A stretch of DNA of 37,820 nucleotides from an uncultured Chloroflexaceae bacterium (GCA_964626155.1 CAZVEN010000021.1:15825-53644); one strand, 5' to 3'; shown: positions 259 through 24,005, counted from the stretch's first letter. Program-made: numbers and translations. Notes: generated by a model not told the origin, from the sequence alone.

Positions 259-1253
259 ACAGGCTAGAAGCCTATCCTACACTTGATGCCGGTGCTACGA
301 AGATATGCACGAGAACCTCATAGCTCCGGTTCGACACCCAAGGCTCGCAACTGTGCTATGAGGCGTTCTTCACGTTCGCATGCACGTTCTTTTTCTTTGC
401 GTTCGCGTTCTTCACGTTCGCTGCTGGTAGGAAGAGGTATGCCCTGCATCGTAAACCAACGTAGCCACGGTAACTGCATACCTTTGTAGGAGCCATGCCA
501 AATGCCTAATGCAACCCCAAGGGGGGGAATGGGATAATGCCCATGCGCATTCGGTGCAACCAACGTGAATTTCCCGTTCTCAAGTACATAGACATCTACC
601 TTACCCGGGTTGACATAGTAGATGGCATAGAACTGGGGTTGGATGACGCGCTCATAGACCCAAAACTTGCCACTTTTGGGTGTGGTATCGTTCTCTTCTG
701 AACCGTCACCCGATACAAATTCACACACGATGAGCGGGCGAGTAGGTTCGTGCCATAGCACATACGAACGTCGTACCTTGCCATGCAGCAAAGGCGGCAC
801 ATTGGGCACATAGTACCAATCGGGCGAGACGGCTCCACGCACCGACTCTTCGTAGGTTGTTTGGACCGCTTCTATGTTCCAATAGATGCCACTATCTTGC
901 CCAATACAGTATTGCCCATCGGGATGGAGTTGGCTCAACACCGGCTCTATACTGTCGGTCAACAAGATACTCTGGGGATGCTCTTGAAAGTTTTTCACAA
1001 AGCTACCATCCTCGTCTGGCAATTGCGTATGGTCGGGGAAACGATAGACCCGCAGGTCGGCAGTTTGTGATTGTATACGATTGGCTACCATAGGATATGT
1101 CCATTCTTTCTGCTTCTATTGCTGTTGCGTACACAACGGTTTCATTCTATGTCCACTATTGTAGCATATATTTGCGCTCGCTGTGTATTTGCTGTAGTGA
1201 ATACTACGAAGAAATGGTGCAAAAGACGTAGCATTAGGCTTCTAGCCTGTCCC
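256..1253. mobile_element. Candidate small mobile cassette: Uma2-family nuclease gene between perfect 19-bp terminal inverted repeats
   Basis: GGGACAGGCTAGAAGCCTA at 256-274 is the exact reverse complement of TAGGCTTCTAGCCTGTCCC at 1235-1253. The only substantial gene inside is the Uma2 CDS 318-1091. Solo related copies lie at 6249-6266 and 32464-32485. Confidence 0.35.
318..1091 (-). CDS. Uma2 family endonuclease (DUF820, PD-(D/E)XK fold) with ER-rich coiled-coil C-terminal tail
   Basis: 257-aa ORF. Motifs RPLIVCEFVS...D...K...YERV.QPQFYAIYYVNP..V.VYVLENGKF fit the Uma2 pattern PDL.VE..S...D...K...Y...GV.EYWIVDP. The tail LRWF..GIPLPT..ERE..ERLIAQLRALGVEPEL is typical of cyanobacterial-type Uma2 proteins. 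Confidence 0.8.
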   Translation of the reverse strand: MVANRIQSQTADLRVYRFPDHTQLPDEDGSFVKNFQEHPQSILLTDSIEPVLSQLHPDGQYCIGQDSGIYWNIEAVQTTYEESVRGAVSPDWYYVPNVPPLLHGKVRRSYVLWHEPTRPLIVCEFVSGDGSEENDTTPKSGKFWVYERVIQPQFYAIYYVNPGKVDVYVLENGKFTLVAPNAHGHYPIPPLGVALGIWHGSYKGMQLPWLRWFTMQGIPLPTSSEREERERKEKERACEREERLIAQLRALGVEPEL

Positions 1254-4598: not shown

Positions 4599-6248
4599 AT
4601 GCACACGTTATTGGTGCAAGGGCAACCTATTACAGATGCATGTGTGACAGAGTGGCAGGAAGTTGCATTTTCTTGTGTGCCACCGCACAATTGCACACTG
4701 GCGTTGACGATAGGCGATACATTGCACCCTGTGCTGCTGCAACCATTTTTGCTGCCGGGCGACCCGGCATGGCGCTGGCGCTGGAATCCGCAGAATACTG
4801 TCGGACATGTTGCCTTTACTTTGGCTATAACCGGGCCAGATGGGCACGTTGACTATGAATATGGGCATCTGCATGTTGTGCCACGCAAGATAGACCAAGA
4901 GCAGTATCAGGCTTTGCTTGATGATTTGCAACGGTTCATACGCTTGCTTGTCTTTTCTTTGCCGGGGAGTATGGTAGGGACACGGGAGAGTGATGCACCA
5001 GAAGAAATACCAACTGAATGCAGCATTATAGAGATGTATTATCGCTTCTTGCGAGAGCGTTTGACAACGCTTGAACAGGCAGTACGGCACATTGCTCAAC
5101 ATCCACATACCCAAACCTGTGTAGGCACGAAACGGGAACCGGTGGGACACGCACATGATTTTTCGCAGGTTGGCGAAGATGTTGCGCGTGGGCAGCCGGT
5201 GTACCCATTTCCAATGCATGCGGTACCGCTGTTTCGACAAGCTCAACAACCGCGCAACAACATACACCATCTGCCAGAGGAAGTTCCCCAGAGTGCTATG
5301 CTAGTAGATGTGGATACGTATGAAAACCGGCTGCTCAAGTGGGTGTTGCATGAGCTATGGCACCGCGCACAGGCAATTGCTACGCTGACGTCTCATGAAA
5401 AAGCGTTTTTACCACAGGTGACACAAGGGTACACAGAGGAAATACACCATAGTGTGCAACGGTTGGCGCAGGTGCGTTCGCTGCCGTTGTTGGAAGGGGT
5501 CAAGACGCTTTCTGTTTTCCATGGGGCAACGTACACTATTCGACATAACCCTTCCTATCGTCAAATCTACCGCTTATGGCAAGAGTTACACACTCTGCCC
5601 GCGCTCGATGTTGAGAGCGATATATTCCATGTGCCAGTGCATGAACTACCACAGTTGTATGAAGTGTGGTGTGTGGTGCAGGTGATGGCGGCTTTGCTGG
5701 AGCAACCGGGCGTTCGTGTGCGTACACAGCGTTTTATCGCACAGAAGGATGGGAGTCGCGGGCATACGTTTGGTCTTGTTGAGGATGTTCCATTGCTTAT
5801 GCTCAATTGGCACGATGTGATTATTTGTTTGCGCTATCAGCCACGCTATTACCCGTTGCACAGTGCGCACATTGCACAGTGTGAGGAGCATACAGAGACA
5901 ATAGGCTCTCTCGATTGTCACATGCACAAGCCAGATATTGCTATAGAGATGATGCATCCTGCACAATTGCCGTCTGTGTTGCTGTTTGATGCCAAATATC
6001 GCCTGACGGCCAGTGGGGGCGTGCCAGAAGATGCGCTGGCCGATATGTATACCTACCTTGGGAGTATTGGAACATATCCCGATAAACGTGTTGTGCAACA
6101 AGCTGCGGTGCTCTATCCGGGCGAGAGGGTTGCAGAGCGCTATGCAAGTGGCGTGGGTGTGTTGGGGCTTGTGCCGGGCTGCCGGGCTAGGCTGCGCGAG
6201 TGGGTGGCATTGTGGCTACTAAGAAATGGTGCGAAAGGCGTAGGATAG
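4599..6248 (+). CDS. PD-(D/E)XK nuclease-like protein (McrC/DUF2357-like) of unknown function
   Basis: 549-aa ORF that starts 8 bp after the DUF2207 stop, so the two are probably translationally coupled. The C-terminal region has HKPDIAIEM...LLFDAKYR (D...E.K nuclease core) preceded by LPQLYEVWCVVQVMAAL, which resembles DUF2357/McrC-type nucleases. The last ~30 nt overlap the GGCTTCTAGC repeat element. Confidence 0.55.
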   Translation: MHTLLVQGQPITDACVTEWQEVAFSCVPPHNCTLALTIGDTLHPVLLQPFLLPGDPAWRWRWNPQNTVGHVAFTLAITGPDGHVDYEYGHLHVVPRKIDQEQYQALLDDLQRFIRLLVFSLPGSMVGTRESDAPEEIPTECSIIEMYYRFLRERLTTLEQAVRHIAQHPHTQTCVGTKREPVGHAHDFSQVGEDVARGQPVYPFPMHAVPLFRQAQQPRNNIHHLPEEVPQSAMLVDVDTYENRLLKWVLHELWHRAQAIATLTSHEKAFLPQVTQGYTEEIHHSVQRLAQVRSLPLLEGVKTLSVFHGATYTIRHNPSYRQIYRLWQELHTLPALDVESDIFHVPVHELPQLYEVWCVVQVMAALLEQPGVRVRTQRFIAQKDGSRGHTFGLVEDVPLLMLNWHDVIICLRYQPRYYPLHSAHIAQCEEHTETIGSLDCHMHKPDIAIEMMHPAQLPSVLLFDAKYRLTASGGVPEDALADMYTYLGSIGTYPDKRVVQQAAVLYPGERVAERYASGVGVLGLVPGCRARLREWVALWLLRNGAKGVG

Positions 6249-13225: not shown

Positions 13226-13825
13226 ATGAGCTATAGTGACTTTACCATAGAAACGCTGAAAGAAAAACTTGGTGTATACCTTGTTGAAGACAGCATCCTT
13301 TTTCCAGAGCCACCATCATACCCTGTCCCCACATTCTTGACAGAGTTACTGCAACGCTACGTGCCATTGGCAACGTTTATCAATACCGAAAAAGCCCGTT
13401 CGGAATTGATCATAGCTCCCATACTTGTTGAGCTAAAATTCCACGTGCAGAAAAAAATCAGCTTGTTCTCTGGCACAGAGTTCAACGTTGACCAGCAAGC
13501 AGGGCTAACCGGGCGATGCGATTATATTATCTCGCTGTCGCCAGAGCAATTGATGCTCAGTGCGCCCGTCATTATTGTTGTTGAAGCAAAAAATGAGAAT
13601 ATCATGAGCGGTATACCCCAGTGCATCGCCACAATGATAGCGGCTATGCGCTTCAACATACAAAAGGGCAACCCAATTGAAACTATCTATGGCATTGTGA
13701 CAACTGGCAACTTATGGCGATTTTTGAAACTAGACTGCGACAACCATGCGTATATTGACACGATGGAGTACCACATACAACGCATTAATACCATCTGGAG
13801 CATCGTCAATGCCATTATTGTATAA
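13226..13825 (+). CDS. PD-(D/E)XK nuclease superfamily protein, HsdR-N-terminal-domain-like
   Basis: 199 aa. ...CDYIISL...PVIIVVEAKNE matches the D...(D/E)xK core; the layout resembles type I restriction HsdR_N-like standalone proteins. Confidence 0.55.
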   Translation: MSYSDFTIETLKEKLGVYLVEDSILFPEPPSYPVPTFLTELLQRYVPLATFINTEKARSELIIAPILVELKFHVQKKISLFSGTEFNVDQQAGLTGRCDYIISLSPEQLMLSAPVIIVVEAKNENIMSGIPQCIATMIAAMRFNIQKGNPIETIYGIVTTGNLWRFLKLDCDNHAYIDTMEYHIQRINTIWSIVNAIIV

Positions 13826-13973: not shown

Positions 13974-14024
13974 ACGGCACGGCTATGTGGCTTAATGAAA
14001 AAAGAGAAACATGGAGAAATACTC

Positions 14025-15236
14025 ATGCACATACGCTTTGTGCTCATATACTGTCTATTGATAGTCGGCATCGCCATAGCCGGCTGTGGACCAGCATCGC
14101 AAACAAACGACGCCCAAACCCACGACGCTTCGCCACAGCCAGCCGCTGAGAGTACATCTCAGCCATCTACCCATGTCGCAACAACCTCAAATGTTACATC
14201 TACCATTGATGGTGATAATGACGATAATATGCCTGTTGACGCCTTGCTTTCCACACCAACACACACAGCAACAGTGACAGAGAACCTAACGCCAACCACG
14301 ACCATGACTATCACCCCAACCCAAATGCCTACTCCCACACCTGCCTACACATTTGGAGAGGAAATCGTCACATTGAGCGGCCACGCCGGAGGGTTGTGGG
14401 CCGTTGCATTAAGTCCTGATGAAACCCTCCTTGCCACCGCTTCAGCCGATGGCACAGCCAAGCTCTGGGATATGGCCACCTTTCAAGAAGTGTACACATT
14501 GCAAGGGCATAGCGCCGCTGTGCGCTCAGTCGCATTTAGCCCCGATGGTACGCTCATCGCCACCGGTTCAGCAGATACCACCATAAAGCTATGGCAACGC
14601 GATACGGGCGAAGAAATAGCCACCCTCAGCGGTGGGCACACCGATGAAGTTGCAGCAGTCGCATTCAGCCCCGATGGGACCCTCCTCGCCAGCGGTTCAA
14701 AGGATGCCAACCTATGCCTATGGGATGTGGAGAGCATGATGCTTGTAGATACCCTCACTGGACATGAAAACTGGATTGAGGGCATCGCGTGGAGTCCGGG
14801 CGGCACACTGTTGGCAAGCGGCTCACTCGATGAAACAGTACGCTTGTGGGATGTAGAGCGTAGAGAGAATATCGCCATATTATATGGGCATACGCATTGG
14901 GTCTTACCTGTTACGTTTAGCCCCGATGGGTCGCTCATAGCCAGTGGTGCCAACGATGCCACGGTGCGTATCTGGTCTGTGGCCACAGGCGAACATGAGC
15001 GCGTGCTAGAAGGGCACACCAACGAAGTGCGCTCAGTCGCCTTTAGCCCCGAGGGGGAGATACTAGCCAGTGGTTCCGAGGATGAGACCGTCATACTATG
15101 GCGCGTATCCGATGGCGAAGAGATTGCACGGCTACAACCCGGCTCCTCGGCCGCATGGGTGCTCTTCAACGCCGATGGCTCTATACTCTTTACCGCATTG
15201 GGCAATGGGCTACTCAAAGTGTGGTATGTCGGGTGA
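14025..15236 (+). CDS. WD40-repeat lipoprotein (7-bladed beta-propeller) with Thr/Pro-rich linker
   Basis: Signal peptide MHIRFVLIYCLLIVGIAIAGC with a lipobox, then a T/P-rich linker, then 7 WD repeats (GH...WD/WS pattern). The ORF track starts at 13995; 14025 has a GGAG RBS. Confidence 0.9.
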   Translation: MHIRFVLIYCLLIVGIAIAGCGPASQTNDAQTHDASPQPAAESTSQPSTHVATTSNVTSTIDGDNDDNMPVDALLSTPTHTATVTENLTPTTTMTITPTQMPTPTPAYTFGEEIVTLSGHAGGLWAVALSPDETLLATASADGTAKLWDMATFQEVYTLQGHSAAVRSVAFSPDGTLIATGSADTTIKLWQRDTGEEIATLSGGHTDEVAAVAFSPDGTLLASGSKDANLCLWDVESMMLVDTLTGHENWIEGIAWSPGGTLLASGSLDETVRLWDVERRENIAILYGHTHWVLPVTFSPDGSLIASGANDATVRIWSVATGEHERVLEGHTNEVRSVAFSPEGEILASGSEDETVILWRVSDGEEIARLQPGSSAAWVLFNADGSILFTALGNGLLKVWYVG

Positions 15237-15257
15237 CGTGGGATTGAGAGGCAAAAA

Positions 15258-15779
15258 ATGGAAGAACTTGTACAATTGCGTGAACATATCCAACAGCAAC
15301 GCTATCGTGAGGCACTTGATGTACTTGACGACATGGATGATATGAGTAAGAAATCTATTCTTGACGCCATTCAAACATTTCTGGAGCATATGTTGGTATA
15401 CATCATCAAAAACGATGTTGAGCAACAGATGACCAATGCATGGGCCGCGTCAATTCGTGACTCGCTGCTACAGATACGCAAGCGCAACCTCAAAGGCAAT
15501 CAGGTGTCGTGGTATCTTGAGCGCGATGATTGGGATGCCCGCCTAGACGAAGCATATGAAGTTGCGATAGCTGATGCGAGTGTTGAAGTGATGGATGGTC
15601 TCTATACGCCATTTGAACTCTATGAACAGGCGCACTGTGATGTGGTATTAGAACGTGCGCGGTGTCTGCTTGTGCTCATGTATGACCACCCACCCAAGTC
15701 GTTGCCACAGGTTATCAACGACTACTTGAGCACGCTCCCCGGCGGGCATACATGGCGATACGGAAACAAACGGGGTTAA
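15258..15779 (+). CDS. DUF29 family protein
   Basis: 173 aa. N-terminal MEELVQLREHIQQQRYREALDVLDDMDDMS fits the DUF29 profile. A paralog lies at 20141-20578. It starts 21 bp after the WD40 stop and is probably co-transcribed. Confidence 0.75.
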   Translation: MEELVQLREHIQQQRYREALDVLDDMDDMSKKSILDAIQTFLEHMLVYIIKNDVEQQMTNAWAASIRDSLLQIRKRNLKGNQVSWYLERDDWDARLDEAYEVAIADASVEVMDGLYTPFELYEQAHCDVVLERARCLLVLMYDHPPKSLPQVINDYLSTLPGGHTWRYGNKRG

Positions 15780-15837
15780 TAAAGTGAGTTTGTATGACTG
15801 TTCAAAATGAACCAATAACTCAGCGTCATACTGCTCT

Positions 15838-15985
15838 CAGCGCCTCTGCGTTGCATCTTAACGCAAAAGCGCAAAGGAGCAAAGACGCAAAGGCCGGAAG
15901 GCATGGTACGTAGATTATCTCTCTATGCAAGAAGGTGAAGCTGGTCCCATATTAGAAGTCTTCAATGCCAGTTGCATCTTAACGC
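15838..15985. repeat. octamer-repeat element copy
   Basis: CAGCGCCTCTGCGTTGCATCTTAACGCAAAAGCGCAAAGGAGCAAAGACGCAAAGG. TTGCATCTTAACGCA is repeated at 15972. Confidence 0.6.
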
Positions 15986-15992
15986 AGTGGTT

Positions 15993-16259
15993 TTAGCATG
16001 GAGGTACCGAGGTTCTGGATGGTGCATGTTTAAGCCATAGAGCATCAGCGCACAGCTCTATTTCCCCTGGCCATTGAATATAGCGCCCACGTTCGCCAAC
16101 TGCAACCTGTGCAAAAAACGGTTGGTCTTTCAATGGTGCAAATATACCCCCACGTTCAATATAGGGGTTACAATCAACAATGATTGTGTCACCTGATGCA
16201 TACGTTAAACGCACATGATAATCTGGTTCGGCAACCACATGGGTAATAGTGTACAACAT
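15993..16259 (-). CDS. DUF2442 domain-containing protein
   Basis: MLYTITHVVAEPDYHVRLTYASGDTIIVDCNPYIERGGIFAPLKD.PFFAQVAV..RGRYIQWPGEIELCADALW matches the DUF2442 pattern. Start chosen at the internal Met with an AGAGGGG RBS. Confidence 0.8.
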   Translation of the reverse strand: MLYTITHVVAEPDYHVRLTYASGDTIIVDCNPYIERGGIFAPLKDQPFFAQVAVGERGRYIQWPGEIELCADALWLKHAPSRTSVPPC

Positions 16260-16337
16260 GACAATATACCCCTCTATTCTAGGATGACACGAATACACAA
16301 ATAGGTGGTACTCACACCACCACAGCTATGTGCAGGT

Positions 16338-16359
16338 GAGACGTTGCGTGCAACGTCTC
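16338..16359. repeat. GAGACGTTGC-GT-GCAACGTCTC palindrome directly 3' of the NACHT gene
   Basis: Perfect 10-bp arms, from the same family as 8443-8528. Confidence 0.8.
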
Positions 16360-16362
16360 AAC

Positions 16363-16444
16363 CACTCAATCGCCCCATCGCCCCATCGCTCAATCGCTCA
16401 ATCCCTGACCCCTGACCCCTGACCCCTGACCCCTGACCCCTGTC
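16363..16444. repeat. compound microsatellite: 8-mers (CTCAATCG/CCCCATCG x5), then 7-mer CCCTGAC x5 (+1 degenerate) overlapping the last 18 codons of the NACHT gene
   Basis: Read directly from the sequence. The 7-mer array (16403-16444) encodes ...GVRGQGSGVRGQG on the minus strand. Confidence 0.9.
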
Positions 16445-19400
16445 ACCGCTTGCACAACCGCCCTCACCTGCGCCGGGTACGCCTGTGCCAGCAACTCACA
16501 CATAGCGTAGGCAGACTCGACGGAGTAAGCACAGGGGATGAGCAACTGCTTGAAATGGGACAAATCGCCCGCCTCTAGCAACTCCTCAGCATCAATCGTC
16601 TGTACGGTTTGGAGTGCGGCAGGAAAATCGCCTGCACGTGCTTGGGCTGTGACGATAGCTGACAACGCTTTCACACGTCTTCGCCCATGGTCAATCGTCT
16701 GTGCGGTGTGGAGCGCGGCAGTGGAATAGCCTACACGTGCTTGGGCTGTGACGATAGCTGCCAGTTCCTTCGCACGGTCCCAATCATCATCAATCATCTG
16801 GGCGGTGTGGAGTGCGGCAGAAAAATCGCTTGCCTGTGCTTGGGCTGTGGCGATAGCTTCCAGTACCTTAGCACGCTTTTCCGCATCGTCAATTGTCTGC
16901 GCGGTGTCGAACGCGGCAGTACACGTTTGACGAGCATCATCGTGTAAACCGGCCTGTGCTTGTGCTGTGGCGATGTCTGCCAGTGCCTTAGCACGCTTTT
17001 CCGCATCGTCAATTGTCTGCGCGGTGTCGAACGCGGCAGTACACGTTTGACGAGCATCATCGTGTAAACCGGCCTGTGCTTGTGCTGTGGCGATGTCTGC
17101 CAGTTCCTTAGCACGCTCTTCCGCATCGTCAATCGTCTGTGCTATCTGGAGTGCAACCGCAAACACATGGCGCTCAGCCAGCTTGTCACACAAGTCTGCA
17201 CGTTTGTAATCATCCAGCAATTGTTGTTGCAAGCTGACAAGCATGTGCTCATCAATGCCAGACACAACCGGTAACAACATAACCGCATATTTTGCTTGCT
17301 CAACATCTAGTCGTGGCAACCGCTCCGCCAGCACACGCTCCAGCCTTTTGCGTGCATCGGATTCATGTCCATTGTCATGCAATTCCCATGCCAGCAGTAG
17401 ATACCACAACACTCGCTGCTTGGCATCAACCAAGTCTGCCAATGCCCATGCTCGTTCTATATTGCCTTCGCGTAATGCGTCGAGTGGGCTTTCTTGGGCA
17501 ATATCGTGTGCTTGGTATACGTGTAGCAACAGCATTCGTGCCATAGTGCCGGCGTCGTCACAGGTTGCGGCCCCCTCTAGCGCTACTTGTATAGTGCGTA
17601 GCGGTAGGTTTGGCTCGGTGGGGAAAGCAGTTGCTTGCTCCTGCTGGAAAATCTGATTTTCTGCAAGGTCATAGAGCGTTTGCCAATGCTGTGCTTGCTG
17701 TAGATGTTGGGCATAGTGGCGCAAGGCGTAGCGGCTATGGTGTTCTGTCCAGCGAAGGCAGTAATTTATCAATTCCTCCAGAAAGAGAACAGTTTTCCCT
17801 TTCAATTTGCGTTTTGTTAAATAGTTTTGAAAGCGCGGGTGACACAACGCATAACTACTATGACCTAGTTGTCCTCGGTGTTCTATGACAAAACGGCGCA
17901 CAGGGTCCAGTATTTGATCAAAAAACCATTCCATGTTTGGGTAGAGACGAAAAAGGTCCTCAGATGGCAGTGGACCAAGAGCTACCATCAAAATGCCTAG
18001 CAAGTTACGTATGTCCTCTTCATTCCGCAATGCTTTGCTCACTTGTTGCCACCAACCATCCAGGTAGCTCTCTAGCCCTGCGGGTTGTTGCGCTATCTGG
18101 GCCTCGCTTATGCGCCCATTGGCAATGTCCTTAACCAGATAGCGTACATAGAAGGGGTCGCCTTGCGAGACGCGCAGGATTTGTTGGAGGAAGTGTTCCC
18201 ACCCTAGCCCCCCCTGCGAGAGGGAATCGGGCATCTCCCTTTCGTCGGGGGGGCCGGGGGATGAATCGGGCATCTCCCCCCCGTGTACGGGGGGGACGGG
18301 GGGGGAATCCGCAATGGCTTTAAGCAACAGTTGCTCGATACCCGCTAGGTCAAGCGTTTCTAGGCGTATAGCCAGCACATCGGTTTGCGGCAACCCCAAG
18401 CGCTGTAGGTCGTCGCGCCCGGCCTGCTCGCGGGCCGAGAAGATGATGAACTTGCCCGTTGGTAGCTCACGCGGTATGTGTAGGTCACGGATAAAGTCAT
18501 CCTCGGCTTCGTCTAGCCCATCAATGACGAGTACGAGTGGGCGACCAGCCTGCACCAATGGCATGCGGAGTAGTTTGGCATACAGCGCTTCCAATTGTCC
18601 CGGTTCGTGTTCGGGTGGCAGGGTTGCTTCTATCTGATAGTAACTCAACATTTGTTCACACATTTGGCGCAGGAAATCTACGCGCCGATGCGTATTGTCG
18701 AGGCGGTTGAGGAAATACCAGCAGTAGCGCTCGTGTTCAGGCGCAACCAGGTTGGCTATCAGTGCCGTTTTGCCATAGCCCGATGGGCCGGTGATGAAGA
18801 CGTAGCCACGTGAACGGCTTGCCAAAAAGTTACGGATTTGTGCTAGTTCGTCATCGCGCCCGGCAAACAGCGTGTGGCGCTCGAAATAGTTGGTTTGCCC
18901 TTCGCGCAACTGGGCCAGTGTGGTGCGGCGTTGCGCGAGGAGCATGCCGGCCTGTATGGTGTAGTCGGGCATAGCAAGTCCACGGGTGAGCTTGCCAATC
19001 TCAGTGTGCAACGAATGCATCATGTCTTCAAGGTGTTGTACGCCTGTTTCTGTACGTGTAGCTATTGCCTCGGTGCGTTGGGTTGTTGTGTCAATAAAGG
19101 TGATGGTTTGCTCCATCCGTGTCAGTGTGTCTTTGAGGTGCTGCATGCTCTCGTGCAGAGGTTGCAAAGCTGTGTCTAGGGCGTCGTCGCCCGTGGGGTC
19201 ACGCTGGTTGGCAGGCTGAGTTTGCAATGTTTCTGCCCACTCCTGAAGCCATAGCACAACCTCGCGGATGTCATCAGTCGTTTGGCTTATCTGGCTTATC
19301 TGCACAGTGGTTTTGGCAAGGCTTTGCTGCCATAGCAATTGATATGCCCGCCATGCGCGTGTGCCTTGCTCGCTTGGGTCTTTCAACTCCTCCCGGAAGC

Positions 19401-20019
19401 GCAACATCCACTCATCGTAGAGATACTGGGCAATATGCTCAACTATACCAAGGGGTTGGTTGGTAAAAAAGTCGTCACGCAACTTTTGCACAAAGAGCGT
19501 ATTGGCTGTCGTTTGGGCTTCGTCAATGTGGTTGGCGTTCATTACCTGGGGGAGAATATGCACACAAGCGTGAATCTGGTCATTGAGATGTTCAAGCGTA
19601 ATGAGTTCGTCAGCGGTGCTTTGTGCTTCCTCATGCAGGCGACGCAATTGGTTGTGCAAGCGCGAACGTTGATCGGGGCGGCGCAAGTGGTTTAGCCATT
19701 GAGGTTGTGCCTCGCTCATGTTGAGCACATGGGCTATCGCTTCTGGGGTCGTAGCCCGTTCCAACAAGGTATGCCAATCGCGGTAGATTTGCTTTGCTGC
19801 TGCATTGAAGGCACGTGCGAGTGCTTTGGCAATATCGTGGTTGAGTGCGCCACGCTCGCTGAACCAGCCGGCCCGCCAACGCTGATAGCTCTGCTCGGCA
19901 AGGCTAGAAGCCCAATTCGTACCTACCCCACCAATAGATGCAAGCAGGTATTCAGATGCGCTTTCGGCTGTTTTCAGCCCAACAGTAGCAAGTGCGCCTG
20001 TGAGTATAATTTCGAGCAT
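16390..20019 (-). CDS. NACHT/STAND-family P-loop NTPase (bacterial NLR-like) with uncharacterized ~370-aa helical N-terminal region and C-terminal 40-aa helical repeat array
   Basis: 1209 aa. Walker A GPSGYGKT, Walker B LVLVIDGLDEA, then a helical/WH region, then at least 5 repeats of the form AQTIDDAEKRAKALADIATAQAQAGLHDDARQTCTAAFDT. No recognisable enzymatic motif in residues 1-370. Confidence 0.85.
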   Translation of the reverse strand: MLEIILTGALATVGLKTAESASEYLLASIGGVGTNWASSLAEQSYQRWRAGWFSERGALNHDIAKALARAFNAAAKQIYRDWHTLLERATTPEAIAHVLNMSEAQPQWLNHLRRPDQRSRLHNQLRRLHEEAQSTADELITLEHLNDQIHACVHILPQVMNANHIDEAQTTANTLFVQKLRDDFFTNQPLGIVEHIAQYLYDEWMLRFREELKDPSEQGTRAWRAYQLLWQQSLAKTTVQISQISQTTDDIREVVLWLQEWAETLQTQPANQRDPTGDDALDTALQPLHESMQHLKDTLTRMEQTITFIDTTTQRTEAIATRTETGVQHLEDMMHSLHTEIGKLTRGLAMPDYTIQAGMLLAQRRTTLAQLREGQTNYFERHTLFAGRDDELAQIRNFLASRSRGYVFITGPSGYGKTALIANLVAPEHERYCWYFLNRLDNTHRRVDFLRQMCEQMLSYYQIEATLPPEHEPGQLEALYAKLLRMPLVQAGRPLVLVIDGLDEAEDDFIRDLHIPRELPTGKFIIFSAREQAGRDDLQRLGLPQTDVLAIRLETLDLAGIEQLLLKAIADSPPVPPVHGGEMPDSSPGPPDEREMPDSLSQGGLGWEHFLQQILRVSQGDPFYVRYLVKDIANGRISEAQIAQQPAGLESYLDGWWQQVSKALRNEEDIRNLLGILMVALGPLPSEDLFRLYPNMEWFFDQILDPVRRFVIEHRGQLGHSSYALCHPRFQNYLTKRKLKGKTVLFLEELINYCLRWTEHHSRYALRHYAQHLQQAQHWQTLYDLAENQIFQQEQATAFPTEPNLPLRTIQVALEGAATCDDAGTMARMLLLHVYQAHDIAQESPLDALREGNIERAWALADLVDAKQRVLWYLLLAWELHDNGHESDARKRLERVLAERLPRLDVEQAKYAVMLLPVVSGIDEHMLVSLQQQLLDDYKRADLCDKLAERHVFAVALQIAQTIDDAEERAKELADIATAQAQAGLHDDARQTCTAAFDTAQTIDDAEKRAKALADIATAQAQAGLHDDARQTCTAAFDTAQTIDDAEKRAKVLEAIATAQAQASDFSAALHTAQMIDDDWDRAKELAAIVTAQARVGYSTAALHTAQTIDHGRRRVKALSAIVTAQARAGDFPAALQTVQTIDAEELLEAGDLSHFKQLLIPCAYSVESAYAMCELLAQAYPAQVRAVVQAVTGVRGQGSGVRGQGLSD
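16861..17100. repeat. two near-identical 120-bp direct repeats inside the NACHT gene (40-aa repeat units)
   Basis: 16861-16980 and 16981-17100 differ at one base. Flanking units are diverged copies. Confidence 0.9.
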
Positions 20020-20039
20020 AAACGCGCCCGCCTTCTTTT

Positions 20040-20140
20040 TTTATGAGCTCGCGCCAAGACGCAAGGAATGCAAAAATCACGAACCTTGTCTTTGCGTTGC
20101 GTCTCTGCATCTCTGCGCCTCTGCGTTGAAAATGTACATT
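20040..20140. repeat. octamer-repeat element copy (partial; right end homologous to 11660-11719)
   Basis: TCTCTGCATCTCTGCGCCTCTGCGTTGAAAATGTACATTTCATGTAGGGTTGCTATATGC. Confidence 0.6.
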
Positions 20141-20578
20141 TCATGTAGGGTTGCTATATGCCTGTATCATGCCAAATGCCTGTTGCTCAATAGCTGCTCG
20201 GTCCACCATTGTTGCCAGTTTTTCCTCGCTGTATGCTCCCCCGAATGCTTCCAGCGCGGCGTGTTTCAACGCAAGCGGGTAGGCATCATGGATTGTTTCG
20301 CGCATCGTGTCCTCGTCCAAATACGTTCCGCGTGCTTTGCGTCGCTTATTGGTCCTAACAATTTGGTCTATCGCATGGTATATGGACACATCACAAGAAC
20401 GGGTGGTACGATTCTCGGCAGATTGCTTTATAAGATGCAATAACAGGATAATGGTCAAACTATAAATTTTATTTACCTTATCGTCATGGCTCATTTCTTC
20501 CATCTCTCCGAGTAGCTCCATAGCTTCAGCATAGCGTTGGTTTTCCAAATGGTTGCGCAGTTGGAATAGTTCTTCCAT
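20141..20578 (-). CDS. DUF29 family protein (paralog of 15258-15779)
   Basis: MEELFQLRNHLENQRYAEAMELLGEMEEMS; 145 aa; AAGGAAGG RBS. Confidence 0.75.
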   Translation of the reverse strand: MEELFQLRNHLENQRYAEAMELLGEMEEMSHDDKVNKIYSLTIILLLHLIKQSAENRTTRSCDVSIYHAIDQIVRTNKRRKARGTYLDEDTMRETIHDAYPLALKHAALEAFGGAYSEEKLATMVDRAAIEQQAFGMIQAYSNPT

Positions 20579-20684: not shown

Positions 20685-21992
20685 CTACCCTCTATTGTTC
20701 TCCTCGTCGCTGCCCCCCGTACCGGGCGCTGGTTGTTGCGGCGGCTGCCCTTGCTGTTGCTGGGGTGGGTAGCCCTGTTGCTGTGGTGGGTAGCCCTGTT
20801 GTGGCGGGTAGCCCTGTTGTGGTGGGTAGCCCTGTTGTGGCGGGTAGCCCTGCTGTTGAGGTGGGTAGCCCTGCTGTGGCGGGTAGCCCTGCTGTGGCGG
20901 ATAGCCCTGTTGTGGCGGGTAGCCTTGCTGTGGCGGGTAGCCCTGTTGTTGAGGTGGATAACCCTGTTGTTGAGGTGGATAACCTTGTTGTTGTGGCGGA
21001 TAGCCCTGCTGTGGCGGGTAGCCCTGTTGTGGCGGGTAGCCCTGCTGTGGCGGATAACCCTGTTGTGGCGGATAGCCCTGTTGTGGCGGGTAGCCCTGTT
21101 GTGGCGGGTAGCCCTGTTGTGGTGGGTAGCCCTGTTGTGGCTGCATAGACTGATTCATCATATTGCCCATACCCATGCCCATAGCCAACCCCATGCCCGC
21201 TTCCATAGGCCCGCCAGCACCACCGGGGTTGGCGGCGGCCACACCCATAGCCTCAGCAGCCTTATAGCGCATATAGTCCGATTGTGTTGCCGCCATCATC
21301 GTTTGCGCCTCTTGGGCCTTCTGCACACGTTCCCACGTTGCTTCGTCTACCGATATTTCCTCTACATAAAAGTCATTTATCTTCAGCCCAATTTCCTCAA
21401 ACAAGCTAGATAGCTTCACCCGCGAAGCCGCATTCAGCTCCTCCGTCAGAGTTTGCAAGTCAATAACCGACGTTTTCTGAGACGTGACAAGCTTGCGCAT
21501 AATAGAAACAATCCTACCGCGCATATACTTCGTCAAATCTCTCGTACTGTAAACCCCTTGCTGTCCCACAATCTCATTAACAAATGAAGCCGGGTCGGCT
21601 ACCTCGCAAGAATAGCCCCCAAAAGCACTCAGTTGTGTCATACCGATAAAAGGTTCTGGGTCTTTGTACATCACCTTGCCCATACCCCACTTACCTTCAA
21701 ATCGTTTTTCCGTATTGACAAACACAACTTCAGCTTGAAACGGCGTCTTGCCACCCGTTACCCACCCAACAATCCCGGCCAGTATGGGAATATTGGCAGT
21801 GCTGATAGTGTGTCGGCCCGGGCCGAGCACATCGCGTGCTTTGCCTTCATAGAAAAAGAGCGCTACCTGCCCCTCACGGACAATAACTTGAGACCCAATG
21901 CGAAAATCGCCGGGCCCATATTCCGGCTCACGGTGAACAATCTCTTCGCCGGAAGAGTCAATAAATTCAACAACATCAATAAATCGTGGCAT
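20685..21992 (-). CDS. SPFH/band-7 domain protein (COG4260-like) with C-terminal 20x QQGYPP low-complexity tail
   Basis: N-terminal [51 protein letters not shown] resembles COG4260 SPFH proteins. Residues ~286-410 are (Q)QQGYPP repeats; there is no C-terminal Zn ribbon. Confidence 0.8.
20757..21147. repeat. 18-bp (occasionally 21-bp) tandem repeat array, ~20 units, encoding QQGYPP
   Basis: GGTGGGTAGCCCTGTTGT variants repeat head to tail. The reverse-strand ORFs 20733-21413 and 20765-21148 are artifacts of this array. Confidence 0.9.
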
Positions 21993-22061: not shown

Positions 22062-22556
22062 TTATGCTTGCTTGCCATAGTAGACAAGTGCTTGGCGTTC
22101 ATCAAATTGCTCGTTTAGTCCATCCACGAGCCTTTGCAGTGATGCGATAGCTTCAGCAAAACTATCAGTGCCGAGGTTTTTTTCAGCAAATGCTATTTGT
22201 TCCTGCAATATCGGCACACTGTCTGCTAATTTGGCATCAAATTCATAGATACGGTCCAGGTCGGCTTCGGCTATTTTCACCTCGCTAAACATAGGCGAAT
22301 AGCCTTGCACGGCGCTTTGTAGCCGTGATATAAACCGGTTGAGGGTGCGGTTCACCTCTTCCAATGCAGAGACATAGTGCAGTCCGCCACTATCCATAGC
22401 TTGTTGGGAGAGGCGAGTGATGTTTTTCTGTTCGGCTTCATACTGCTGGCTCAAATGCCTACGCAACACCTCATCGGCATCACGGCGTTTTTCTTTCGAT
22501 GAGTAGCCTTCGTAGCCTGGAATGATACCCATGAGTTTGTTCAGTATATTTCCCAT
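22062..22556 (-). CDS. hypothetical coiled-coil protein (164 aa), probably co-transcribed with the SPFH gene
   Basis: The internal start MGNILNK has a GGAGAC RBS; the ORF track N-extension is rejected. 70-bp gap to the SPFH start on the same strand. Confidence 0.55.
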   Translation of the reverse strand: MGNILNKLMGIIPGYEGYSSKEKRRDADEVLRRHLSQQYEAEQKNITRLSQQAMDSGGLHYVSALEEVNRTLNRFISRLQSAVQGYSPMFSEVKIAEADLDRIYEFDAKLADSVPILQEQIAFAEKNLGTDSFAEAIASLQRLVDGLNEQFDERQALVYYGKQA

Positions 22557-22692
22557 ATGTAAGGGTCTCCTTCTACCAATGACGAATAACACGATAGAGA
22601 GCATAGCACGTCATCAAATACTACAATCATTGTACCTTATTTGCCGTGAAAAACAAAGGGGGGGGATGGAAGTGTTCGTAAACAAGTTTTTA

Positions 22693-22886: not shown

Positions 22887-24005
22887 CTACCCCTCTGCCA
22901 AGGCAGAAATATCAGCAAGAGAAAGACCGGTGATGTCGGCAATGAGCGATGGCTCAAAGCCCTTAGCTTGTAAGTTGCGCACAGTGTTGCGCTGTGTTTC
23001 GCGTGTACGTTCGCGTTCCAAGCGAGCAAGCTCTTCGGCTTCGCGTGTACGTTCGCGTTCCAAGCGAGCAAGCTCTTCGGCTTCGCGTGCGCGTTCATCG
23101 GCTTCGCGTGCGCGTTCGTCGGCTTCATCCAAGCGCTGAACAACATACTCTGCGCGTTCTTCTGCTATGCGGCGAGCTTGCACCATTTCTGTATAATCTA
23201 CAACCTTGTGTCCTTGCTCATGAAACCAGCATATATCATCTTTGCCCAGACCTACATACATTTTAGCGGCTTCAATCCACACACGCCCGTGTGTATCAGG
23301 TTGGCACAAATCATAGAAACCGAGCCTATTCAAGCAATAGACGTATAGCTTAGGAAGGGTACCTTCAGGTGCATCATCATCGGGAAGGTCTAAGACGATA
23401 TAGACAGCAATGCCCGCCTCTGCATAGATTTCCCATTTTGAGCGTAACCCAGGATGTTCCCGTTTTTTGTATTCAAAGAGGCGTAGCTCTTTTTCTGTCA
23501 GCAAAGAAGGGTCCATATCTAAACAGCGTGTTCCGGGCGAGGTAATTTCCAAAACCACTTCTACTTTAGCGCCTTCGTCTTTGACATAAAACGTGCTCCA
23601 GTTGTAATTTTTTGGTCTTTTGATGCCAGAGACCAGAGCAGCATCGGGTGCAACTGGACGTAGACCGGGTAAACCCAAATCTATACGCATTTCTTTTAAG
23701 ACCACCATAGATGGTTTATGTTGGCTAGAGGCCCTCATAGCATTGTACGAATAGGTTTGAGAAATGGTATGGCGATTACGAACAGACACCTCATCCCCCT
23801 CCTCTGGGAACAATACATCCAAGATAGTCAATGGGCGATATTCGCTTATTTCGGTGCCATCGGGAAGCACCCGGGTAGAATAACGCCAGCCAAATTCTTC
23901 TTCCTCTGCTCTTTCTGTTGTTGTTGTTGGTATGAAGGTTCTTTTTTTGGTAAACGGCTTTGTATATTCTAGCACGTCGGTTGTTGTAGGATAGACAAAA
24001 GACAT
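22887..24005 (-). CDS. Uma2 family endonuclease with extended N-terminus and ER-rich coiled-coil C-terminal tail
   Basis: RPVAPDAALVSG...VVLEITSPGTR..D...K...YAEAGIAVYIVLD matches the Uma2 core. The tail carries a perfect 48-bp tandem duplication (EELARLERERTREA x2) and ends in LIADITGLSLADISALAEG. AAGGAGG RBS. Confidence 0.75.
   Translation of the reverse strand: MSFVYPTTTDVLEYTKPFTKKRTFIPTTTTERAEEEEFGWRYSTRVLPDGTEISEYRPLTILDVLFPEEGDEVSVRNRHTISQTYSYNAMRASSQHKPSMVVLKEMRIDLGLPGLRPVAPDAALVSGIKRPKNYNWSTFYVKDEGAKVEVVLEITSPGTRCLDMDPSLLTEKELRLFEYKKREHPGLRSKWEIYAEAGIAVYIVLDLPDDDAPEGTLPKLYVYCLNRLGFYDLCQPDTHGRVWIEAAKMYVGLGKDDICWFHEQGHKVVDYTEMVQARRIAEERAEYVVQRLDEADERAREADERAREAEELARLERERTREAEELARLERERTRETQRNTVRNLQAKGFEPSLIADITGLSLADISALAEG

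Follow-up and report, generated by a model that had tools for sequence, protein, structure and literature searches.

A probable single-gene NACHT receptor of an uncultured Chloroflexaceae bacterium and its unnamed N-terminal module, a candidate membrane-targeting effector

The subject of this study is a gene at positions 16390-20019, minus strand, of a 37,820-nt stretch of DNA from an uncultured Chloroflexaceae bacterium (GCA_964626155.1, CAZVEN010000021.1:15825-53644); the whole stretch is called the window below, and all coordinates are counted from its first letter. The gene encodes a NACHT protein of 1209 residues, which we read as a stand-alone, single-gene receptor of the NLR-like (nucleotide-binding, leucine-rich-repeat receptor-like) kind from filamentous-type Chloroflexota, with an N-terminal module that would serve as a non-enzymatic, membrane-targeting effector. 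We put the probability of this reading as a whole at about 0.5, and its parts differ in strength. That the gene is an NLR-like unit by itself, with the module in the output position, we consider quite probable; for the module to be an effector that works on the membrane, the chance is at best even. As judged by sequence comparison, the module is a discrete, mobile and large unnamed domain family. The class of receptor is already known for its antiphage sensors (bNACHT/Avs), and the output domain is what is new. The parts of the protein are as follows.

16390-20019, minus strand: whole NLR-like STAND NTPase, consisting of N-terminal module, coiled coil, NACHT and helical repeats
19885-20019, minus strand: hydrophobic, glycine-containing helix-turn-helix, residues 1-45, starting MLEIILTGALATVGL
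19315-20019, minus strand: core of the unnamed all-alpha domain, residues 1-235
18985-19314, minus strand: long coiled-coil linker from the N-terminal domain to the NTPase, residues 236-345
18337-18867, minus strand: NACHT NTPase core, residues 385-561
18766-18789, minus strand: Walker A motif GPSGYGKT, residues 411-418, which fits the P-loop pattern GxxxxGK[ST]
18505-18537, minus strand: Walker B motif LVLVIDGLDEA, residues 495-505, in which D-G-L-D-E fits D[GAS]hDE
18222-18309, minus strand: proline-rich insert PPVPPVHGGEMPDSSPGPPDEREMPDS behind the NTPase core, a 42-nt repeat in 2.2 copies (Tandem Repeats Finder)
16570-17382, minus strand: C-terminal TPR-like helical repeat array, residues ~880-1150, the presumed sensor
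16403-16442, minus strand: heptanucleotide repeat GGGGTCA x5.7, encoding the C-terminal tail GVRGQGSGVRGQG

Over residues 385-561 the protein is matched in Pfam by AAA_16 (1.1e-13), NPHP3_N (2.4e-9), AAA_22 and NACHT, and the match to the NACHT model itself (PF05729, residues 406-561, E 1.3e-6) scores 28.8 bits, where 26.7 are required. NACHT is told apart from other STANDs by the D[GAS]hDE signature in the Walker B motif (10.1101/2022.07.19.500537). A preliminary description of this DNA, made from the sequence alone, had called the protein a NACHT STAND NTPase on the strength of GPSGYGKT and LVLVIDGLDEA; the call stands, as do the positions given for this gene and for the DUF29, DUF2442 and WD40 genes around it. 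Homologues of the whole protein (P0002-P0018) were found at E 1e-69 to 1e-266, the sole strong PADLOC match is to the generic STAND_TPR model over the NTPase region, and the sole PDB sequence match is to MalT (E 1.4e-4). All told, the tripartite plan is present: an N-terminal output position, a nucleotide-binding and oligomerisation domain (NOD) and, at the C-terminus, a repeat sensor.

The proline-rich insert sits between the NTPase core and the next helical region, and the C-terminal 300 residues are helical repeats with two unit sizes. Tandem Repeats Finder defines a 120-nt (40-aa) unit, present in 2.6 copies with 95% nucleotide identity at 16832-17139, and a 99-nt (33-aa) unit, present in 3.4 copies at 16585-16921. 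Near-identical internal repeats have also been described for the repeats of fungal and bacterial NLRs. Against Pfam the array gives weak matches alone (TPR_12, E 6e-4; TPR_30, E 4e-3), and the closest homologues, P0002 and P0004, are annotated TPR_12/TPR_30. The sensor-like array of 40-aa helical repeats seen in the preliminary description is indeed there; the accompanying remark that it is not TPR has to be given up, since the repeats are weakly TPR-like. The final 16 residues of the protein, GVRGQGSGVRGQGLSD, come from the perfect heptanucleotide repeat. The end of the gene and the sequence beyond it (16330-16442) are made up of short tandem repeats: after the GGGGTCA tract come 8-nt repeats and then a perfect 10-bp hairpin, GAGACGTTGC-AC-GCAACGTCTC. 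In L018, a contig from a close relative, the heptamer tract carries stop codons (L018 5885-6073), and it may be a hotspot of frameshift or rearrangement.

The N-terminal module proved much harder to place. Residues 1-374 gave no significant match in Pfam (to E=10), NCBIfam or PADLOC, only coiled-coil noise at most; a profile of the N-terminal domain found nothing among PDB sequences beyond generic coiled coil; the fold of the module has no structural relative in the PDB; and no described family to which it belongs was found in the literature on bacterial NLRs and conflict systems. The first ~370 residues had been described as helical and uncharacterised, and both points hold, the region being predicted all-helical and matching no well-known domain by sequence or by PDB fold.

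Clear signs that the module is a unit in its own right come from its relatives. Residues 1-340 behave as separable in BLAST comparisons against the first set of homologues. The module recurs at 29-56% identity on the NACHT proteins P0003, P0010 and P0012-P0017, on the NB-ARC-TPR protein P0021 and, with 56% identity over the module, on P0009, the C-terminal half of which is an "inactive STAND" (iSTAND, PF19995). A homologue search with the domain alignment as query gave one match. With a profile built on 11 N-terminal modules (A1), a search of 1.84 billion cluster representatives (50% identity clusters) drew 584 proteins at E<=1e-3, 146 of them at E<=1e-30, so that the family comprises at least 584 clusters. 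In nearly all of the best 150 of the 584 matches the domain starts near the N-terminus, in proteins that range from 176 to 2458 residues, and of the 97 representatives with 600 residues or more, 70 have a Walker A motif 280-480 residues in. The partners among 38 scanned members were TPR (20), NB-ARC (9), nSTAND1 (6), NACHT (4) and WD40 (3), and others were AAA_16, iSTAND (P0009), VMAP-C (two members) and an FGE-sulfatase-type sensor (P0116). Since it is found on iSTAND and VMAP-C proteins, the module belongs to the shared domain pool of conflict systems.

The position of the module within these proteins is that of an effector. P0002 is 50% identical to our protein over NACHT and repeats, yet its N-terminus is Schlafen/AlbA_2, and the NB-ARC-TPR paralogues arrayed in tandem with P0021 are tipped by Mrr_cat nucleases (L004/L005). 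The module occupies this same place, and it is the only candidate output in the proteins that carry it. In Pfam scans of 80 members, the matches listed include no enzymatic effector, be it nuclease, protease, TIR, SIR2 or another; two of the scans, made on alignments, give the 25 families matched most often, and a rare fusion could escape them.

Several members depart from the usual layout. There are stand-alone short members of 200-450 residues, and five short members end in strong C-terminal transmembrane helices; among proteins of about 400 residues, P0120, P0136, P0159 and P0176 carry a strong C-terminal transmembrane anchor. The module also occurs without any NTPase, as in P0116, where it is joined directly to the FGE-sulfatase-type sensor, while P0112 and P0149 have an apparent FHA-like C-terminus, judged by eye. 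At L013 2173-4991, a 589-aa module+AAA_16 protein overlaps the start of a PNP_UDP_1 gene (nucleoside phosphorylase-type) that runs off the contig and may be a further tandem NLR paralogue with a different N-terminal effector.

Four parts can be told apart in the family alignment: first two hydrophobic helices joined by a turn, then LNHD[IL], then F-G-E-E-L-K...A-W-R-A-F-Q, then a long coiled coil. In our protein the core motifs read LNHDI (residues 59-63), REELKD (209-214) and TRAWRAYQ (220-227). LNHD[IL] is near-invariant and is found where the first core helix starts. Within the hydrophobic hairpin, alignment A3 shows conservation of G14 (25/27), P21 (22/28) and G33 (22/29), and also of G18, G31 and N35; an acidic residue stands at position 3, ahead of helix 1, in 15 of 26 sequences. 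Our protein begins M-L-E-I-I-L-T-G-A-L-A-T-V-G-L, with both the acidic position 3 and central glycines. In the stretch ahead of LNHD, the maximum Kyte-Doolittle value (19-residue window) averages 1.72 over 116 members and is above 1.6 in 70% of them. Glycine makes up 13.7% of this stretch and 6.7% of the proteins as a whole, and at no point does the core of 230 residues rise above 1.6.

Structure prediction agrees with an all-helical module. An AlphaFold2 model of residues 1-345, built from an 11-sequence alignment, has a mean predicted local distance difference test score (pLDDT) of 67 and long helices at 217-266 and 275-344. A second model, of residues 1-280 from a 30-sequence alignment, is all-helical with pLDDT 77 and a predicted template modelling score (pTM) of 0.71; its core (61-230) is confident, and residues 1-33 fall below pLDDT 50. 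The linker, residues 236-345, finds generic coiled-coil matches only (Pfam, PDB). Two possible signs of enzymatic activity were considered and set aside. A HEPN-like Rx4H motif could be read into "RGALNH", but the family alignments show no conservation of the Arg; the His, present in 22/29 sequences of A3, is common without being invariant. The near-invariant N60 and D62 might have been catalytic; they lie at the N-terminal end of the model helix 61-88 and look like a helix cap. From where they lie in the model, the conserved polar residues seem to have a structural and not a catalytic role.

From this architecture a mechanism can be proposed. The C-terminal TPR-like repeats would serve as the ligand sensor, and the NACHT NTPase, whose motifs are observed, would act as a nucleotide-dependent oligomerisation switch, leaving residues 1-345 as the putative output module. 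Oligomerisation of the receptor would cluster the N-terminal domains through their coiled coil, and the glycine-rich hydrophobic hairpins, once exposed, might insert into the cytoplasmic membrane, a step that we wholly infer. Collapse of the membrane barrier would then kill or arrest the infected cell, resulting in abortive infection. The logic would be that of HeLo/Bell/MLKL domains and plant CC-NLR (coiled-coil NLR) resistosomes. An affinity for membranes is suggested by the conserved hydrophobic, glycine-rich hairpin and by the C-terminal transmembrane anchors of the five short members.

A bolder form of the same claim extends it to the whole family. The module might found a new family of non-enzymatic cell-death executioner domains, a helical bundle of ~235 residues sheathing a glycine-zipper-like hydrophobic hairpin, recruited time and again by no fewer than four STAND clades (NACHT, NB-ARC, nSTAND1, iSTAND), by VMAP proteins and by sensor-only proteins (TPR, WD40, FGS); it could be the bacterial counterpart, with an unrelated fold, of the HeLo/MLKL/CC domains. 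We advance this only tentatively, and think it somewhat more apt to be wrong than right.

The hairpin that suggests an attack on the membrane might instead hold the protein there. The module would then be a membrane tether, scaffold or adaptor rather than a killer, keeping the receptor at the membrane, for instance on guard over the envelope or over the entry of phage, or recruiting an unlinked effector by homotypic contact in the manner of EAD and Death-like domains. The family hairpin often reaches transmembrane-like hydropathy, the tail anchors on some short members suggest permanent membrane residence, and stand-alone short members exist. Moreover, the module is common to iSTAND and VMAP-C proteins, whose N-termini are often adaptor domains (PMC7159879). 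That said, an adaptor working on the "EAD principle" should be found fused to enzymatic effectors, and no such fusion appears among the matches listed for the 80 members; neither is there a conserved partner gene in the loci examined nor a match to the Pfam EAD or Death-like models (to E=10), and in otherwise similar proteins the module replaces bona fide effectors (AlbA_2, Mrr_cat). We regard the tether or adaptor role as rather unlikely, at about one chance in four.

Other observations weigh against a membrane-targeting, single-gene receptor. The hydrophobic hairpin may just as well be a tether that holds the protein at the membrane permanently. In our own protein the N-terminal helix is too short and too weakly hydrophobic for a classical transmembrane segment: it is hydrophobic over ~15 residues only, with Kyte-Doolittle means of 1.88 (15-residue window) and 1.15 (19-residue window). 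The preliminary description had it begin with an amphipathic or hydrophobic segment, which is right as far as those ~15 residues go. The G-x-P turn of the family is missing as well, with polar residues in its place. The module is also large, a core of ~235 residues plus a coiled coil of 110 residues, where Bell and HeLo bundles have four or five helices in 80-100 residues and the compact bundles of the wider HeLo/Hell/Bell/MLKL/CC group about 80-130 residues. A literature search found no experiment on any family member and no phage-defence data for the clade. The surroundings of the gene in the window are mainly housekeeping genes, with no clear defence island, and the single-gene claim has few genomic contexts behind it.

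These contexts are 17 related loci (~13 independent) that encode relatives of the NACHT protein or of its N-terminal module. The sample is small, with 2 genome and 7 metagenome loci coming from related-locus searches, and statistics of co-occurrence are weak. One relative is surrounded by Tn7-like genes, GmrSD and a methyltransferase; another by an MmeI-type restriction-modification enzyme, a dynamin-like GTPase and an ADP-ribosylglycohydrolase; further relatives have transporters as neighbours, or housekeeping genes (L001, L003 and L014 mostly so). The relatives that lie beside restriction-modification, GmrSD or Tn7-like genes, or in nuclease-tipped NLR arrays, fit a defence or conflict role. 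No conserved partner gene was found across the ~13 independent loci examined.

The same contexts bear on whether the protein has to do with immunity at all. Many STAND NTPases are regulators, and this one could be a non-immune switch that serves a filamentous bacterium in development, in stress or in interactions between cells, with the module as its signalling output. MalT as the sole PDB sequence match would suit such a role, as would the mostly housekeeping surroundings in the window and the likewise housekeeping neighbours of the L001 and L014 relatives. However, Pfam detects neither a DNA-binding domain nor any other output domain for signalling, relatives have effector-type domains exchanged at their N-termini, the near-identical internal repeats (95% at the nucleotide level) resemble those of fungal and bacterial NLRs, the NACHT gene comes and goes between close relatives, and some relatives keep company with restriction-modification, GmrSD or Tn7-like genes. 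A regulatory function is in our view improbable, clearly more so than a tether.

The neighbourhood of the gene raises a separate issue, namely whether the receptor works alone. The genes concerned, together with some others of the window, are these.

318-1091, minus strand: second Uma2 protein (putative endonuclease)
4599-6248, plus strand: DUF2357+PDDEXK_7 protein
13226-13825, plus strand: PD-(D/E)xK protein (PADLOC PD_DExK, 1e-46; the model is CRISPR-associated)
13995-15236, plus strand: WD40 protein with a lipobox (IAGC), an open reading frame (ORF) 21 bp upstream of DUF29a
15258-15779, plus strand: DUF29-like protein "a", 173 aa, placed by its paralogy to DUF29b
15993-16298, minus strand: DUF2442 gene (Pfam E 1.5e-10)
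16390-20019, minus strand: NACHT protein gene, 1209 aa (ORF; Pfam AAA_16, NPHP3_N, NACHT)
20141-20578, minus strand: DUF29 "b" (Pfam 22.6 bits, barely above the cut-off of 22.5)
20685-21992, minus strand: SPFH/Band_7_1 protein with a PPQQGY repeat tail
22062-22604, minus strand: 180-aa protein of the LIMLP_15305 family (NCBIfam 1.2e-10)
22887-24005, minus strand: Uma2 protein

The arrangement is much as the preliminary description had it. Two paralogous DUF29 genes on opposite strands flank the NACHT gene: DUF29a has no Pfam match itself but is 32% identical to DUF29b (E 2e-18), and an orthologue of it, 88% identical, has a weak precomputed DUF29 match. DUF2442 lies downstream of the NACHT gene on the same strand, and the WD40 lipoprotein gene and DUF29a form a close pair at 13995-15779. 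DUF29b is 121 bp upstream of the NACHT gene on the same strand, with no terminator predicted between them, and the two may be co-transcribed. Such proximity could mean that NACHT, both DUF29 genes and DUF2442, with or without WD40, make up one multi-gene defence system; DUF29b, NACHT and DUF2442 do share a strand, and DUF2442 is a toxin-antitoxin-associated family (PMC8198452, PMC12065111).

The related loci speak against this. None of the 17 has a homologue of DUF29 or DUF2442: DUF29a, DUF29b, DUF2442, the SPFH protein, the 180-aa protein, Uma2 and PD-DExK gave no tblastn match at E<0.1 in them, and neither DUF29 nor DUF2442 occurs in the called-gene tables of five homologue contexts. As far as these few loci show, then, DUF29 and DUF2442 do not accompany relatives of the NACHT protein above chance, and the accessory set proposed in the preliminary description is not supported. 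Two candidate partners were dropped on similar grounds. The SPFH protein (20685-21992), a conceivable membrane partner, has no homologue near any relative, and the WD40 lipoprotein travels with DUF29a independently of an intact NACHT gene.

The comparison with L018 is instructive here. Its WD40+DUF29a genes are 88% identical to those of the window at the nucleotide level, and the pair is kept in L018-L021, all without an intact NACHT gene or DUF2442. The stretch matching DUF2442 of the window is replaced in L018 by unrelated sequence, and of the NACHT gene there are the last 63 codons (70% amino acid identity, with the stop codons in the heptanucleotide repeat) and an unrelated 70-aa ORF beyond the remnant. 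It follows that WD40+DUF29a is a stable pair, while the NACHT gene and DUF2442 vary between close relatives. In the alignment of L018 1-6401 with window 13995-16558, the genes that precede WD40+DUF29a in L018 are AAA_5 (MoxR-like) and DUF5682, not PD-DExK.

The ground between NACHT and DUF2442 tells in the same direction. The real start of DUF2442 is probably the ATG at 16259, and between the NACHT stop and that start lie a terminator-like hairpin (16321-16304) and a promoter-like site (16290-16263), both of them consensus matches only, which would part the two genes. The usual DUF4160 partner of DUF2442 is missing, the 91-130 bp between the NACHT stop codon and DUF2442 containing no ORF for a DUF4160 toxin. 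In the DhiTA pair, DUF4160 is the toxin and DUF2442 the antitoxin (PMC8198452). The gene in the window belongs to the same DUF2442 family; it differs from DhiTA in having neither a DUF4160 partner nor a demonstrable link to the NACHT gene, and it is apparently an orphan antitoxin-type gene with a promoter-like site of its own. In addition, small families (Uma2 twice, DUF29 twice, PD-DExK) are scattered through the window among housekeeping genes. We therefore judge the DUF29, DUF2442 and WD40 genes to be unrelated neighbours and not parts of the NACHT unit, and consider a multi-gene system highly improbable, the least credible of the alternatives.

Housekeeping genes make up most of the remaining window (glutamine synthetase, aldo-keto reductase, nucleoside phosphorylase, transaldolase, two-component systems), and the G+C content along the window, 44-58% per kilobase, reveals no obvious foreign island. 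The glutamine synthetase shares 82% identity with that of a Chloroflexaceae MAG, and with one exception the named relatives belong to Chloroflexota, which places the window, part of a 95,498-bp contig, in a genome of that phylum. The two Uma2 genes, the PD-(D/E)xK gene and the DUF2357+PDDEXK_7 gene are dispersed among these, and no CRISPR or cas genes were seen alongside the Uma2 and PD-(D/E)xK genes in the window. The C-terminal tail of the SPFH/Band_7_1 protein consists of ~20 PPQQGY repeats derived from an 18-nt tandem repeat at 20767-21141, and the SPFH gene and the 180-aa LIMLP_15305 gene, upstream on the same strand, may be a gene pair.

The interest of the module lies in its breadth. 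It spans at least 584 clusters and takes the effector position of many STAND and conflict-system proteins, with no profile in the libraries searched and no PDB relative. If it is a membrane executioner, an independent fold would be added to the short list of immune modules that form pores or disrupt membranes (HeLo/Bell, MLKL, CC and gasdermin), many NLRs of filamentous bacteria now listed as "N-terminal unknown" would become annotatable, and a compact module would be at hand for the study of how oligomerisation is turned into membrane damage. A more modest consequence is that DUF29 and DUF2442 should not be listed as NLR accessory genes from this locus alone.

In comparison with known systems, the closest are the bNACHT (10.1101/2022.07.19.500537) and Avs (PMC13581612) proteins. 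Each of them, too, is one polypeptide chain, with an output domain at the N-terminus, a NACHT/STAND NTPase in the centre and TPR-like repeats at the C-terminus. They have the Walker motifs of NACHT (Walker A, and Walker B of the D[GAS]hDE type), swap N-terminal domains between close relatives and are usually single-gene. The differences are that the module studied here has no match to any effector or adaptor family known from Pfam or PADLOC, and that the host is an uncultured Chloroflexota bacterium. The ternary conflict systems built on iSTAND and VMAP (PMC7159879) share the module itself, which is found on the iSTAND protein P0009 and on VMAP-C proteins. They differ in that the NACHT of the window, judging from its intact Walker motifs, looks active, and no vWA or MoxR genes are adjacent to it.

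The membrane-active domains of other NLRs offer the nearest parallel for the module. In HeLo, Hell, Bell, Babybell, MLKL and CC domains, helix 1 is sheathed by the other helices and is proposed to line a pore (10.1101/2020.01.06.895854; 10.1101/2024.11.07.622273). This helix is hydrophobic, carries an acidic residue at position 2-3 and has a central glycine that its function requires, as described for helix 1 of Bell, Hell and Bab (10.1101/2024.11.07.622273). No similarity of sequence or fold to HeLo, Hell, Bell, MLKL or CC was detected in Pfam and fold searches, and the family differs from them in having a two-helix glycine-rich hairpin, not a single helix, and in involving no amyloid motif. 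Given the size, the topology and the outcome of the fold searches, what we claim is analogy and not membership. Like those domains, the module is a non-enzymatic, all-alpha, N-terminal NLR module that occurs in multicellular or filamentous bacteria, and our protein has the hydrophobic helix with acidic position 3 and central glycine, a match of pattern and not a test of homology. The proposed logic is also the same: oligomerisation would free helix 1 to attack the membrane.

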